Below, piece by piece: positions 23,111 to 27,599 of a stretch of 64,000 nucleotides of DNA. The stretch lies in IMG/VR virus record IMGVR_UViG_2609460332_000008, one strand, 5' to 3'. A program made the position numbers and the translations under genes. Position 1 is the stretch's first letter, and each line of letters opens with the position of its first letter. This DNA comes from a virus (Duplodnaviria; Heunggongvirae; Uroviricota; Caudoviricetes). The notes beneath the pieces are model-generated. The model ran no database searches, had not been told where the DNA came from, and saw only the letters and a program-made list of their open reading frames with translations.

Positions 23111-23404
23111 TCAGTCCCTCGCACGGGGTTTTTTAACGCCCGGAACGCTGGACAGGCCGTTTGCCACATCCTCGCCGCTGCCGGTGATTTCAGCCACGTA
23201 ACAGCCGCCCACATCAGACAGACGAACCAGCCCCTGCTCGCGCAGCCATGCAAGCTGGGTGCGCACCACATCACGGGATACCTTATGACCGTAGGCCTGA
23301 AGGCAGGTCTGCAACACGGATTCATTCGCGCTGTCGCCACAGTCCAGCAGGGAACGCAGCAACACAAGACGACGGTCTTCAGTGAGGATCTCTTTCATCG
23401 CCAT
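23111..23404 (-). CDS. Hypothetical protein (97 aa)
   Basis: ORF tightly packed with neighbours. Confidence 0.4.
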   Translation of the reverse strand: MAMKEILTEDRRLVLLRSLLDCGDSANESVLQTCLQAYGHKVSRDVVRTQLAWLREQGLVRLSDVGGCYVAEITGSGEDVANGLSSVPGVKKPRARD

Positions 23405-23709
23405 TATTTTTTTTCCTTTAACTCGTTCTCTAATAACAAATCGCTGATGCGGGATACCTGGCGGATGGATGGCCCCAGCTCTTTGATTTCTCCCCGCAGG
23501 TTGCTGATATCCAGTTGCAGGCGGTGGAACTCATCACGGTCGGGTAAATGGTGTACCTGGCTTTCCATCACCGACATGCGGGAACGGAGTGAATCAAACT
23601 CTTCGCGTTTGACGTAGGTTTTCGCCAGAATCAGCTGAAGCAGGTTTATTCCTGTCATCAGCAATGCCCACAGAATGGGCCAGTTGGCTCTGATCATTTC
23701 CCAGGACAC
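23404..23709 (-). CDS. Membrane-anchored coiled-coil protein (101 aa), possible lysis accessory protein
   Basis: N-terminal hydrophobic segment WPILWALLMTGINLLQLILA followed by a charged coiled-coil region. Confidence 0.4.
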   Translation of the reverse strand: MSWEMIRANWPILWALLMTGINLLQLILAKTYVKREEFDSLRSRMSVMESQVHHLPDRDEFHRLQLDISNLRGEIKELGPSIRQVSRISDLLLENELKEKK

Positions 23710-23921
23710 GTTTTCCTCCTGCGTTCCCGCATCTGCTGACAGTCAATACAGGTCACCACATCCGGCAGCGCCGCAAGGCGCTGTGCCGGAATAACGTTCC
23801 CGCAGTCATTGCAGAAGCCCCGGCTGTGGGGCGCTTCTTTTGCCCGCGTCTGCCAGGCTTTAACGACGCTCTGACGCTCGTTCAGAACCACTTCACTGAT
23901 GCGGTCGATTTCGTCGGTCAT
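23694..23921 (-). CDS. TraR/DksA-family C4 zinc-finger protein (75 aa)
   Basis: CNDCGNVIP...CIDCQ four-cysteine motif in a small basic protein. Confidence 0.6.
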   Translation of the reverse strand: MTDEIDRISEVVLNERQSVVKAWQTRAKEAPHSRGFCNDCGNVIPAQRLAALPDVVTCIDCQQMRERRRKTCPGK

Positions 23922-24526
23922 TTCGGCCCCGCAGACATTTTGTGACGGCTCGATTTGCTGTAACGGGCAAAACCGTCAAGGGTTCTTACGCCGAGATAGC
24001 CCAGCGCCGGGGTAAGCAACATCAGCGTGATATCCCAGTCCGGTGACGGCATATGCAGCGAGATACCTCTGGCACAGGCAATGGCTCCGGCAATCTGGCC
24101 GCAGGAGAGCAACAGCACATAGGCCAGACTGCTGTAACAGGAAAGGCGGGCCAGCAGCGGGCGCGTCTGGCGCACATAGCTGTCCGTGGCGTTGTCACCA
24201 TTGCGGATGGTTTCCTGCTGTTCGTGGTGTGCGGCCTGCTGGTCAGCCAGCACCAGCTTCTGCCGTTCCACCTCCAGCTGTTGCAGCTGAATTTTCAGGG
24301 TTTCCAGTTGCACCAGTTGCTCCGGTGACAGCATCACCAGTTTTTGTTCCAGAATGCGTTGCTGTTCAGCAACGGGAAGGCTTTCCCGGACGCTTTCCAC
24401 CATACCGGCCACCGAGTCAGCGGCGGCAGATGTACTGCCACCAAACCAGCGCCCGACGGAACGAATCAGCCCCGGCCCGGCTTTCAGCAGAACAGAGGCG
24501 ATGCCTGAAAGGGTTAACGGATCCAC
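23918..24526 (-). CDS. Lysis-associated membrane protein with central coiled coil and C-terminal transmembrane segments (203 aa, GTG start)
   Basis: GTG at 24524-24526 preceded by GGAGG; coiled-coil LEQKLVMLSPEQLVQLETLKIQLQQLEVERQKL; two C-terminal hydrophobic segments. Confidence 0.45.
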   Translation of the reverse strand: MDPLTLSGIASVLLKAGPGLIRSVGRWFGGSTSAAADSVAGMVESVRESLPVAEQQRILEQKLVMLSPEQLVQLETLKIQLQQLEVERQKLVLADQQAAHHEQQETIRNGDNATDSYVRQTRPLLARLSCYSSLAYVLLLSCGQIAGAIACARGISLHMPSPDWDITLMLLTPALGYLGVRTLDGFARYSKSSRHKMSAGPK

Positions 24527-24939
24527 GGGAAACCTCCATACAGATAACGCTGAAGACAGAGCAGACCGCCGCAACTGCCACCACACAGCCAGAACACCGG
24601 ATGCACCGGTGACATCATCATCAGCGTGCTGAAGACGCAGCAGAAATATCCCAGCGCCCAGACCACCCATGACCACACGATGATGTGGCGACCAAAAGCC
24701 CGGTAACGGACCTCAGGCAGCAGGCGAAATGGCACATTCCCGAGGCTTGCGCTGTATGAAAACAACACCACCCCGGCAAAGGACAACAACATCAACACGA
24801 ACGATCGCCAGCCACATAACATGCTGATGATGAACATGCAGAGTGTCAGTCCGGCCAGCGGCCATGGGGTTCTCATCAGTCGGGAACAAAGCAGCCAGTC
24901 ACACAGTTTTAAAATTTTGTTCATTACCTTTTTCCACAT
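24514..24939 (-). CDS. Multi-pass membrane protein (start uncertain; may begin at a later Met near 24876)
   Basis: Strongly hydrophobic segments (LTLCMFIISMLCGW, VLMLLSFAGVVLFSY, VVWALGYFCCVFSTLMMM); N-terminal part of the long ORF is probably not coding. Confidence 0.45.
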   Translation of the reverse strand: MWKKVMNKILKLCDWLLCSRLMRTPWPLAGLTLCMFIISMLCGWRSFVLMLLSFAGVVLFSYSASLGNVPFRLLPEVRYRAFGRHIIVWSWVVWALGYFCCVFSTLMMMSPVHPVFWLCGGSCGGLLCLQRYLYGGFPWIR

Positions 24940-25150
24940 TGAATTTTTCCCTGTACTTCTGGCACTGCCAGAAAATGTCCCGTGTATCCACGGAGTTCCA
25001 GCCACGCATGTAGTAGCTGGCGTGTGTGCCGTCATGGCCGGTATAGTCCAGCGGTTTCGGGGGCGGACCTCCGGCCATGCGGTGCAGAACCTCCTGACGC
25101 AGGCGGTCACGCCGCCCGGCTTTCAGTGAGGCATCCCAGCCTTTGCCCAT
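24899..25150 (-). CDS. Hypothetical protein (83 aa) immediately downstream of the lysozyme-like gene
   Basis: ATG adjacent to the upstream stop; Trp/Tyr-containing soluble-type sequence. Confidence 0.4.
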   Translation of the reverse strand: MGKGWDASLKAGRRDRLRQEVLHRMAGGPPPKPLDYTGHDGTHASYYMRGWNSVDTRDIFWQCQKYREKFNVEKGNEQNFKTV

Positions 25151-25151
25151 A

Positions 25152-25748
25152 TCACCCCCGCGTGGCGGACATGATGCCCAGAGGGGTATCGATGATTTCC
25201 AGACAGGCGTCGGTCAGTTTTTCCATGCGGTTAAACCAGCCGTTCAGGTATTTACCCTGGGCGGGTTTTGACTTGATGATGTCGGCATAAAAGCGGGAAC
25301 GACGGACAATGCAGCGGGCCAGCAACCAGTCCGGGGTGAACAGACTCACGGCCTTACGGGTACGTGGGCCGATGATGCCGTCAGCATCCACATCAGCGGC
25401 TTCCTGCAAAATTTTGATGGCTTTTTTAACGCCATGCTGAACCGCTGCATCGAACACAAACATCGCCACGCCATCAGGCCACTGGTCACATCCGGCAGGC
25501 AGCCAGTAATCGCGCCAGTAAATCTGCGCGACCTGTTCGCGGGTTAAATCCTTAATGCGGGTATCCGGTTTGCCGTCGCCGTTGACATCGGTTTTGCCGT
25601 CAATCACACCGTCGCGGCGGTCAGAAATGCCGTATTTGGTTTCGCCGCCACGGTCAGTGGGGTCATTGACATAGACGCCTTCGATATCGGGACGCAGAAT
25701 GAAATTCAGCGCATGCTCAAAGGCCGGGGAGAATTTTTGATTTTCCAT
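25152..25748 (-). CDS. Peptidoglycan hydrolase, GH108-like lysozyme with peptidoglycan-binding C-terminus (putative endolysin)
   Basis: Motif EGVYVNDPTDRGGETKYGIS typical of the GH108 muramidase family; first gene after the early-operon terminator. Confidence 0.6.
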   Translation of the reverse strand: MENQKFSPAFEHALNFILRPDIEGVYVNDPTDRGGETKYGISDRRDGVIDGKTDVNGDGKPDTRIKDLTREQVAQIYWRDYWLPAGCDQWPDGVAMFVFDAAVQHGVKKAIKILQEAADVDADGIIGPRTRKAVSLFTPDWLLARCIVRRSRFYADIIKSKPAQGKYLNGWFNRMEKLTDACLEIIDTPLGIMSATRG

Positions 25749-25803
25749 AAAAGCACCTGTGAAGCAGATTTAAACGTGGTCTGCTTCATGGTGCCGGAGG
25801 CAT

Positions 25804-25825
25804 AAAAAAAGCCGGATTTACCGGC
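25804..25825 (-). terminator. Rho-independent terminator at the end of the early operon
   Basis: Minus-strand hairpin GCCGG-TAAAT-CCGGC followed by U7, directly after the Mor/C-like gene stop. Confidence 0.65.
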
Positions 25826-25833
25826 TTCATTGA

Positions 25834-26283
25834 TTAAGGGCGTCGTGGCGGACGACGAACGGGGTGAGGCAGGTTCGGGGAGGGGTAAAACAAATCCGGC
25901 TGGTATTTATTGCGCTCCAGACGTCGCATCCGTTTGATGGCCTTGTAGACGGTTTTATACGTCACCCCGTAACGCTGAACCAGTTCAGGAATATTATGGC
26001 CGTTAAAATCACGCCAGATACGCATATCCCGGACAAGATTCTCCAGAATATTCCCCCTCGGAACATAAACCTGCATCCCGCCGATATGGCGACAAATCGC
26101 CACAACCAGCTCAAGGGAATGGGCAGGGTCTGCACCAATCCGGGCCAGTTCTTTACGCAGCAGTGCGTTCAGTTCAGAAAGTAACGCCGGATAAGCGGTG
26201 TTTTCCTGGTAATCATGAAGATATTCCAGAACGCTGTCGTCCCGAAGGTCTTCGAATAAATCCTGCTCTTTCATCTGTTTCAT
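25834..26283 (-). CDS. Mor/C-family transcriptional activator (149 aa)
   Basis: C-terminal region IWRDFNGHNIPELVQRYGVTYKTVYKAIKRMRR resembles the Mor/C helix-turn-helix region; ATGA start/stop overlap with gemA. Confidence 0.65.
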   Translation of the reverse strand: MKQMKEQDLFEDLRDDSVLEYLHDYQENTAYPALLSELNALLRKELARIGADPAHSLELVVAICRHIGGMQVYVPRGNILENLVRDMRIWRDFNGHNIPELVQRYGVTYKTVYKAIKRMRRLERNKYQPDLFYPSPNLPHPVRRPPRRP

Positions 26284-27171: not shown

Positions 27172-27424
27172 GAATATCTTTATTTGATAGCCCCAGCCTG
27201 CGACGAATGTATTCCTCGCGGGCTGCTTCATTTTGTAGCGCCACGGCAGCTTCCACCTGGTTCATTTCACGGTTAATAATGCTCCGGACTTCTCTGGCGG
27301 TGAGGTCATGCTCAATACCATATTTAACGATATCGTGCATACGTTCCAGCATCTTTAAATTAGCCATGACGCCATCAATATCAACTGGTGTGAATTTCAT
27401 TTCTTTATTCTCTGGTTTATTCAT
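27110..27424 (-). CDS. Hypothetical early-region protein (about 105 aa)
   Basis: ORF in the semi-essential early region; start placed at internal Met MNKPENKEMKF. Confidence 0.4.
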   Translation of the reverse strand: MNKPENKEMKFTPVDIDGVMANLKMLERMHDIVKYGIEHDLTAREVRSIINREMNQVEAAVALQNEAAREEYIRRRLGLSNKDILTDAQMAEAFDIHQDLGLTN

Positions 27425-27599
27425 TTCGTAATACCTCTTCGCAATAAAAGATTTCACTGGGATAACGTTTTTGTATGCGCTCCATCACCTGCATACATGC
27501 CTGTTCTGTGGGCCAGATTTTTTCCGTTACCGGAATGGCATCGCAGGCATCATTCCCACAGGTGCCAACCAGCAGGACAAAGCCAATTGACTTAATCAT
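27417..27599 (-). CDS. Small putative lipoprotein (about 60 aa)
   Basis: MIKSIGFVLLVGTCGNDAC signal peptide with a lipobox-like LVGTC. Confidence 0.4.
   Translation of the reverse strand: MIKSIGFVLLVGTCGNDACDAIPVTEKIWPTEQACMQVMERIQKRYPSEIFYCEEVLRNE

Follow-up and report, generated by a model that had tools for sequence, protein, structure and literature searches.

Phage Mu lyses its host with genes of its late region, which encode an endolysin of the signal-anchor-release (SAR) type (gp22), a spanin (gp23/gp23.1) and a releasin (gp25) (PMC9239132). How is lysis achieved by a relative of Mu in which the endolysin is of another kind? The prophage considered here is a Mu-like (transposable) prophage of Escherichia coli on the minus strand, at approximately 2-34 kb of the IMG/VR virus record IMGVR_UViG_2609460332_000008 (Caudoviricetes). 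This stretch of 64,000 nucleotides is called the window below. Directly after the Mor-family activator gene of the prophage, a cassette of six genes (25748 to 23404, minus strand) encodes a GH108 muramidase, a homologue of Mu gp18, a membrane protein of 136 residues, a protein of 202 residues with C-terminal membrane helices, a TraR-like zinc-finger protein and a DUF2730 protein.

An initial annotation, made by a model from the letters of the DNA, described these genes as a lysis cassette in which a GH108-type muramidase comes first and is accompanied by several membrane proteins and one that is TraR-like, and regarded the holin, antiholin and spanin roles as unassignable. All six open reading frames (ORFs) that it named were recovered with the same coordinates, and the ORFs, their Pfam domains, their hydropathy and the recurrence of the gene order agree with the description. 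Its reservation about the roles appears too pessimistic, as the 202-residue protein belongs to a family that is related to GTA_holin_3TM and is encoded near endolysins of four enzyme classes. We consider it probable (roughly 0.6) that the prophage lyses its host by a soluble muramidase and a holin related to TeaA and the GTA holins, that the gp18 homologue, a hypervariable membrane protein and a releasin-family protein are accessory, that the TraR-like protein is merely co-transcribed, and that there is no spanin.

The cassette is an ordinary, widely conserved lysis variant of a known general kind, and an E. coli example of a case left open by Chamblee et al. It is of limited novelty, since RefSeq annotates the genes, mostly as hypothetical, and earlier literature has remarked on the architecture. 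Current lysis models are not contradicted, and the practical value is modest. The interest of the cassette lies in the evolution of Mu lysis and in the open function of DUF2730: it combines a releasin homologue, a soluble muramidase and a holin-family protein, with no spanin, in a genetically tractable host.

Endolysin

The first gene of the cassette encodes a protein with two Pfam domains, Glyco_hydro_108 (84.0 bits, threshold 21.2) and PG_binding_3 (61.1 bits, threshold 24.6). It can be aligned with 2ikb, 7dnp and 6v3z, which are solved structures of the GH108 type, and the glutamate of its EGxY motif is matched there. In particular, E23 in IEGVY is paired with the hEGGY of 2ikb, and the block D29-I41 (DPxDxGGxTxxGI) is conserved. 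We take the glutamate of the N-terminal EGGY motif to be the catalytic residue of GH108. Homologues of the muramidase were found in 264 phage records, where many of them are annotated as endolysins; Mu was not among the matches listed by tblastn.

Neither a signal nor a SAR segment was detected in the muramidase: no 19-residue window reaches the hydropathy threshold, and the N-terminus (MENQKFSPAFEH) is polar. Therefore the enzyme should build up in the cytoplasm and require a holin that makes large holes.

The initial annotation had pointed to an Asp/Gly-rich stretch as an insertion in this enzyme, and the comparison with relatives agrees. Approximately 14 residues (45-58) are inserted relative to the 50%-identical enzyme of Shewanella phage vB_SspM_MuM16-2, which lacks the stretch, and there are about 10 gap positions over the loop in the HMMER alignment to the NMB1012 structure 2ikb. 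The insertion is conserved in the homologues from Klebsiella phage Kp4866-3 and Yersinia phage vB_YpM_5. Its DVNGDG core is similar to DxDxDG calcium loops, and calcium binding is plausible from this motif.

Candidate holin

A hydropathy scan of the cassette found no hydrophobic segment in the muramidase, the 83-residue gp18 homologue or the TraR-like protein. There are approximately four segments in the 136-residue protein, two C-terminal ones in the 202-residue protein and one N-terminal segment in the DUF2730 protein.

The 202-residue protein is the best holin candidate. Its gene starts at a GTG codon preceded by GGAGG (the initial annotation gave 203 residues). The protein consists of an N-terminal amphipathic helix, a long acidic coiled coil, a TRPxxAR motif and a two-helix membrane hairpin. 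An exhaustive phmmer search revealed relatives in 133 representative clusters. The amphipathic helix, the acidic coiled coil and two hydrophobic helices recur in an alignment of 70 relatives together with a near-invariant TRPxxARxS motif.

The Pfam family GTA_holin_3TM (PF11351) is matched by 29 of these 70 relatives at E <= 0.01 (best E 8.4e-9). The AlphaFold2 model of the 202-residue protein is all helical (predicted local distance difference test, pLDDT, 91), and its best Foldseek match in BFVD is a 'Holin of 3TMs' (E 2.4e-7, 30% identity, 195 columns). PF11351 includes ICP1 TeaA, whose holin activity was shown experimentally (PMC7182436), and RcGTA rcc00556, which is needed for lysis (PMC5026251). 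Like these two, the 202-residue protein is of similar size, is helical in its N-terminal part and ends with membrane helices, is encoded near an endolysin and has no known spanin partner. A dinitrophenol-trigger expression test has been applied to TeaA and to Mu gp19, gp20 and gp25 (PMC7182436, PMC9239132); cells expressing the Mu proteins remained viable.

Genes of the 202-residue family are located one to three genes downstream of the endolysin in five phage types, beside enzymes of four classes. These are GH108 in E. coli, Klebsiella, Shewanella and Vibrio LP.1, DUF5675 instead of GH108 in Vibrio Martha and ZX4290, an amidase in Vibrio 1.232.O and an M15 peptidase in Janthinobacterium phage Donnerlittchen. 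In Mu-like cassettes of Vibrio and Shewanella phages the homologue is the sole annotated or predicted multi-helix membrane protein besides DUF2730. In Vibrio LP.1 and 1.232.O it directly follows the gene of the endolysin, and the flanks that were inspected contain no annotated holin.

The distribution of charges is informative about topology. The mean number of Lys and Arg residues in the 70 relatives is 4.9 in the 20 residues before the first helix, 0.2 in the 8-residue loop and 4.8 in the tail. This points to an N-in/C-in protein with a cytoplasmic coiled coil, a predicted arrangement that fits a holin and speaks against an i-spanin. Holins as a functional class are small, late-expressed proteins with at least one membrane helix and a gene next to that of an endolysin, and the protein conforms to this with its two C-terminal helices and the linkage of its family to four endolysin types. 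Hole formation by it is predicted from family, topology and linkage.

Hypervariable membrane protein

The gene between those of the gp18 homologue and the holin candidate differs strongly even between close relatives. A slot of approximately 300-390 bases is filled by variants with three or four hydrophobic segments in 77 of the 78 viral contigs for which the genes on both sides could be located, and the product has about 125-136 residues in nearly every enterobacterial cassette. At least five variants are mutually unalignable (the slot ORFs compared were those of the window, 24514-24924, and of our contigs L011, 1562-1972, L067, L079 and L083). The 136-residue protein is 28% identical to the slot protein of Kp4866-3 (E 3e-10) and 39% identical to the allele of E. 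coli STEC383, whereas the flanking genes in the latter pair are 97-98% identical. A word-indexed search of 5.8 billion proteins returned only four clusters, all of them near-identical; the wider family is visible only by synteny. This variability suggests cassette exchange or diversifying selection. Every slot variant ends in WIR or WIQ because of a 13-base overlap with the start of the 202-residue gene.

The 136-residue protein and Mu gp19 are both encoded after gp18, and each has about four hydrophobic segments. Their pairwise similarity is marginal (E 0.011 over 22 residues), and the Kp4866-3 variant has no similarity to gp19. Homology of the 136-residue protein to the membrane part of the 202-residue protein was also considered and rejected, as no alignment was found.

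These data bear on the possibility that the four-segment protein is the real holin, while the 202-residue protein is an antiholin, a timing regulator or a new outer-membrane-disrupting substitute for a spanin. We consider this quite unlikely. The protein does have a holin-like size and several membrane segments, and its gene has two in-frame ATGs five codons apart (an alternative ATG at 24939 adds MWKKV), so that two close starts are split by Lys-Lys (MWKKVM). These paired starts resemble the dual-start motif of holin/antiholin pairs, an analogy made uncertain by the predicted N-in topology; the STEC383 allele begins with MHRM. The lack of a spanin in any of the related cassettes, and the position of the 202-residue homologue of Donnerlittchen, which comes after a LydA-type holin and the endolysin, where a spanin is usual, would also agree with such roles. 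However, the four-segment gene is restricted to enterobacterial prophages and absent from the Shewanella and Vibrio cassettes that retain the 202-residue homologue. Its Mu counterpart gp19 is dispensable for lysis (PMC9239132). The positive-inside pattern predicts a cytoplasmic coiled coil in the 202-residue protein, which misfits a periplasm-spanning role, and in Vibrio LP.1 and 1.232.O the 202-residue homologue is encoded immediately after the endolysin. Since the slot is hypervariable and, in the Shewanella and Vibrio cassettes, empty, we see the 136-residue protein as accessory rather than as the core holin.

Search for spanins

A strict lipobox scan of the entire window recovered the Rz1 (40681-40863) and Bor genes of a neighboring lambdoid prophage and nothing in the Mu-like prophage. 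A stricter scan lost even the Mu gp23.1 control, which has a proline in its hydrophobic region, so we relied on relaxed scans. These recover gp23.1 and found no conserved candidate in the cassette or in five related cassettes.

The initial annotation had suggested a search for an embedded o-spanin-like ORF. The sole lipoprotein-like frame, 24022-24201, combines a basic N-terminus with a cluster of Cys residues and a tail rich in Pro. Only close E. coli relatives preserve it, whereas three stop codons interrupt it in the 71%-identical gene of Klebsiella Kp4866-3; we rejected it as a by-product of GC-rich sequence.

There is also no candidate i-spanin in the cassette: the only coiled-coil membrane proteins, the 202-residue protein and DUF2730, have cytoplasmic helical domains as judged by charge. 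No counterparts of Mu gp22, gp23 and gp23.1 were found in the window.

The gp18 homologue, DUF2730 and TraR-like proteins

The second gene of the cassette encodes a protein that the initial annotation described as soluble. The absence of hydrophobic segments supports the solubility, and the protein can now be identified as a homologue of Mu gp18 over its full length (69% identity, E 5e-38); its relatives carry PF26867. No informative fold match was obtained for it. Four positions conserved in enterobacterial homologues (H23, H/C39, H43, C63) would suit a zinc protein, an idea that we dropped because H23, H43 and C63 are not conserved in Shewanella and Vibrio. The layout of the PHROG 2121 profile hinted at natural fusions of gp18 with a holin, and none was found among 20 gp18 relatives.

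The last gene of the cassette is the fifth after the endolysin gene. The initial annotation called its product a membrane-anchored coiled-coil protein; the membrane anchor stands, and the protein is now assigned to DUF2730 (PF10805, 106.2 bits vs the threshold of 24.9, residues 4-98), the family of the Mu gp25 releasin. It is collinear with gp25 and 27% identical to it (BLASTP, E 5e-12). A hydrophobic segment at residues 10-31 is followed by KTYVKRE, and the flanking charges predict an N-out, C-in orientation. Mu gp25 is a proven lysis factor that frees the membrane-tethered SAR endolysin, and each of the 34 phages that Chamblee et al. 2022 examined has its DUF2730 gene no more than five genes from that of the endolysin (PMC9239132). 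The cassette offers no SAR endolysin as a partner, since its own endolysin lacks a SAR domain. The described mode of releasin action is therefore inapplicable here, though membership of the family still holds. Pairs of DUF2730 with GH108/PG_binding_3 endolysins have been listed in Mu-like Vibrio phages, and the role of DUF2730 there was named an open question (PMC9239132).

The TraR-like protein passes both PF01258 (zf-dskA_traR, 42.3 bits vs 24.9) and TIGR02419 (61.5 vs the cut-off of 59.7), and it matches the solved structures of TraR (5w1s, E 3e-6) and DksA (1tjl, E 5e-6). Its zinc ribbon has the form CxxC-17-CxxC (C37, C40, C58, C61). The protein resembles the TraR of the F plasmid and TraR-like proteins of phages in length class, in the zinc ribbon, in the acidic N-terminus (MTDEID) and in passing TIGR02419. 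Unlike the F-plasmid gene, it is encoded inside a phage lysis/packaging operon, and RNA polymerase binding is only predicted for it. Acting on RNA polymerase is the established function of the TraR family. As far as its sequence indicates, the protein probably binds in the secondary channel of RNA polymerase and has no part in lysis. Mu gp24 was ruled out as its counterpart, since the two proteins have no similarity.

The gene for a homologue of Mu gp26 marks the downstream boundary of the cassette and is followed by gp27 and the small and large terminase genes. The cassette might be smaller than we propose, with only the muramidase and one membrane protein serving lysis, and with the gp18-like, TraR-like, DUF2730 and gp26-like proteins serving regulation or morphogenesis. 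This is consistent with the solved complexes of TraR with RNA polymerase, the winged-helix fold of gp26, the lack of a membrane segment or informative fold in gp18 and the fact that DUF2730 has no demonstrated lysis role beside non-SAR endolysins (PMC9239132). For the TraR-like and gp26-like proteins such a view coincides with the best explanation. On the other hand, the place of the gp18 homologues, between the endolysin and a membrane-protein gene, is constant in phages ranging from E. coli to Vibrio, stop codons overlap with start codons there, and the constant proximity of DUF2730 to endolysins, together with the proven role of gp25, argues for its participation in lysis. We therefore hold the smaller cassette to be unlikely as a whole.

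Integrity and conservation of the cassette

The prophage genes follow the Mu order: transposase A and B, gam, gp16/GemA, the Mor-family gene, the cassette, gp26, gp27, terminase and portal. The ORFs of the cassette are tightly packed, with overlapping stop and start codons or a single base between them. The order gp16, Mor, GH108, gp18, membrane slot, 202-residue protein, TraR, DUF2730, gp26 recurs in 80 IMG/VR contigs. A 3-kb query comprising the cassette and mor has a match in 58 of 5426 complete E. coli genomes. It is 100% identical to the sequence of E. coli KFu019, whereas the flanks of the window differ from those of KFu019; therefore the same prophage is inserted at another site in the window genome.

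The ratio of nonsynonymous to synonymous substitution rates (dN/dS) between the window and E. coli strain RM9088 is 0.08-0.27 across the six genes. All six are thus under purifying selection and are not chance frames.

Outside of enterobacteria, similar cassettes occur in Vibrio Nahant myophages (e.g., 1.028.O; Table S1 of PMC9239132) and in Shewanella vB_SspM_MuM16-2. They share with the window the core gene order, in which the endolysin is followed by the gp18-like, 202-residue, TraR/DksA, DUF2730 and gp26-like proteins and the small terminase. Unlike the window cassette, they lack the hypervariable four-segment gene, and their identities to the window proteins are only 23-50%.

We also considered that the prophage is cryptic and the cluster a remnant in decay, which has lost lysis. 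The cassette is known here only as a prophage, and some related loci contain pseudogenes, such as the RM9088 gp16 with an internal stop. However, the six genes are intact and selected as described above, and the full prophage, from the repressor gene through the end of the tail genes, lies inside the window. The same cassette is present in deposited phage records, namely that of Klebsiella Kp4866-3, which is unverified, and that of MuM16-2, which is a prophage of Shewanella sp. M16. The Vibrio Nahant phages, which were sequenced from plaques, carry GH108, a 40%-identical 202-residue homologue and DUF2730. Decay is thus very improbable.

Control region and relation to Mu

The control region upstream of the muramidase gene contains a dyad, AAGCCGGTAAATCCGGCTT, and a T-run at 25808-25828, which together give a terminator-like match. 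It is identical to the Mu middle promoter Pm at 35 of 41 bases, vs a match of only 7 bases with the Mu promoter Plys. Both the dyad AAGCCGGT(T/A)AATCCGGCTT and the T-run fall within the block in common with Pm, and the Pm annotated in the Mu record spans a predicted terminator at the same position. Judged by these matches, the upstream region is homologous to Pm and not to Plys. The muramidase gene leads the cassette, and its initial description as the first late gene should be qualified accordingly. No second Mor/C gene was found in the window by tblastn with the Mor-family protein as the query, and the single Mor-family protein is presumed to activate the cassette.

In Kp4866-3 and in RM9088 an extra gene is located between mor and the dyad, and the dyad is still directly upstream of GH108. 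The extra product is a 110-residue membrane protein in Kp4866-3 (878-1210) and in 21 of the 80 viral contigs, and a 165-residue protein in RM9088 (625-1122). These genes probably represent moron-type insertions, placed where the early operon ends. A perfect 8-bp inverted repeat, GAAGCAGA-N11-TCTGCTTC, around TTTAAAT (25761-25787, minus strand) also lies between the Pm-like dyad and the start codon of GH108. It is only partly conserved in Kp4866-3 and may be an operator, an RNA hairpin or a product of chance.

The initial annotation would have been contradicted by orthology of every gene to characterised Mu lysis proteins. Only DUF2730, through gp25, has such a counterpart. The window and Mu share the neighborhood of gp16/GemA, a Mor-family activator, lysis genes, gp26, gp27 and terminase, three related proteins (gp18, 69% identical; gp26, 61%; DUF2730/gp25, 27%) and the Pm-like dyad. 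The differences are as follows. The window endolysin is a soluble GH108 muramidase, whereas that of Mu is a SAR T4-type lysozyme. The window cassette has neither a spanin pair nor a counterpart of gp24, and it has holin-family and TraR proteins that are both lacking in Mu. The gp18 and gp19-like genes are in one unit with the endolysin gene, and there is one Mor/C activator instead of the two of Mu. The Mu block C-Plys-gp22-gp23-gp23.1-gp24 stands where the window has the holin and TraR genes. From the relationships with Mu, the homology to Pm and the single Mor/C gene we infer that the cassette is the counterpart of the Mu middle operon fused to late genes.

The cassette thereby offers an origin for the Mu middle-operon genes gp18 and gp19 and for the promoter Pm. 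Both orphan genes look like remnants of a fuller arrangement of the window type. This is supported by the Yersinia Muvirus vB_YpM_5 (2948-3749, 4361-4876), in which a GH108 gene, 75% identical to that of the window, is directly upstream of gp18 in the middle operon and a Mu-type SAR lysozyme gene is located downstream of C. This phage looks like an intermediate between the two cassette types.

Proposed mechanism of lysis

In the mechanism that we propose, the lysis module would be transcribed from the Mor-dependent, Pm-homologous promoter, at the start of one long operon running into the packaging genes. The muramidase, with its GH108 and PG_binding_3 domains, would build up in the cytoplasm as a soluble active enzyme. 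The candidate holin would enter the membrane as a helical hairpin of N-in/C-in orientation, with a coiled-coil domain of approximately 125 residues in the cytoplasm, and, as its family, topology and linkage suggest, would at a set time make lesions big enough for the folded muramidase to reach the wall. The gp18-like protein and the four-segment membrane protein could be accessory factors that tune the holin, perhaps as antiholin or timing factors. DUF2730 would be an accessory factor of the releasin family, probably acting on the membrane or the holin step. The TraR-like protein would be no more than a passenger in the operon, with the RNA polymerase of the host and not the envelope as its target. 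As no spanin is encoded, outer-membrane rupture would be either unassisted or performed by an uncharacterised protein of the cassette.

Several points weigh against this reading. The 202-residue protein scores 19.1 bits (E 0.002) with PF11351, vs the gathering threshold of 24.8, and we therefore file it as a related subfamily and not as a Pfam member; ten distant relatives were likewise not above the threshold in a Pfam search. We assume that ICP1 ORF137 is TeaA, from its number and position. The profile of the 202-residue family matches ORF137 with an hhalign probability of 83% (E 9e-6), but the match is confined to the N-terminal 50 residues, and our local Pfam scan did not call PF11351 in ORF137. 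No counterpart of the ICP1 antiholin ArrA was recognised in the cassette, with no direct comparison made. The Donnerlittchen homologue occurs alongside a LydA-type holin encoded upstream, so the family may not always provide the primary holin. Hole formation, lethality and timing of the 202-residue protein are beyond the prediction tools used. The roles of gp18, the four-segment protein and DUF2730 are proposed from position, and the dispensability of gp19, the positional counterpart of the four-segment protein, in Mu adds to the doubt. Finally, the prophage may use a host function or an unrecognised one for outer-membrane disruption.

A bolder version of our reading is that phages of this Mu-like clade lyse their hosts by a spanin-free, three-part inner-membrane machine, composed of a TeaA/GTA-type holin whose large coiled coil is in the cytoplasm, a cytoplasmic partner of the gp18 family and DUF2730. 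One of these proteins would disrupt the outer membrane, releasins would in general trigger or shape holin lesions instead of serving SAR endolysins specifically, and the 'holin-less' system of Mu, with gp18 and gp19, would be what remains of such an ancestral machine. We give this version little credence.

Coordinates and neighboring genes

The features discussed above are listed in Table 1.

Table 1. Features of the Mu-like lysis cassette and its surroundings (window coordinates)
Feature	Coordinates	Strand	Length (residues)	Basis or remark
Mor/C-family transcription activator	25834..26283	-	149	Pfam Mor 104.6 bits; phrog_532 'late transcriptional activator'
Intergenic control region	25749..25833	-		Pm-like dyad and inverted repeat
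Soluble endolysin, GH108 N-acetylmuramidase with PG_binding_3	25152..25748	-	198	Pfam; phrog_315 endolysin
Asp/Gly-rich loop RDGVIDGKTDVNGDGKPD, DxNxDG-type motif	25563..25616	-	residues 45-62	Lineage-specific insertion
Mu gp18 homologue, soluble, basic, helical	24899..25150	-	83	69% identity
Hypervariable membrane protein, about 4 hydrophobic segments	24514..24924	-	136	RefSeq start; Mu gp19 position
Best holin candidate	23918..24526	-	202	Family, topology, endolysin linkage
TraR-family C4 zinc-finger protein	23694..23921	-	75	PF01258, TIGR02419
DUF2730 protein, N-terminal membrane segment and predicted cytoplasmic helical domain	23404..23709	-	101	PF10805
Mu gp26 homologue, winged-helix	23111..23404	-		61% identity, E 2e-42; NCBIfam VpaChn25_0724 122 bits

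Two small ORFs outside of the cassette have lipoprotein-like features. In the early/semi-essential region of the prophage, an ORF of 60 residues (27417-27599, minus strand), hypothetical in RefSeq, starts with MIKSIGFVLLVGTCGND. It has an N-terminus similar to a signal peptide, a non-canonical lipobox and then several Cys residues, and by these features it could be a small exported or lipid-anchored protein. In Klebsiella-type viral contigs (L036, L037, L049, L057, L073 and others in our numbering), an alternative-frame ORF of 60-68 residues lies in the large-terminase region at approximately 7700-7900. Its hydrophobic stretch ends with [AVI][AVS]SC at residue 37. The ORF is absent from loci of the E. 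coli type and is probably spurious.

The end of the Mu-like prophage near 34.2 kb adjoins an IS66-family transposase gene (34197-35756). The lambdoid prophage beyond it has canonical lysis genes of its own, with a Q antiterminator, a GH24 lysozyme and the Rz1 lipoprotein, as well as Bor (40954-41247). Therefore the window contains two different lysis systems.

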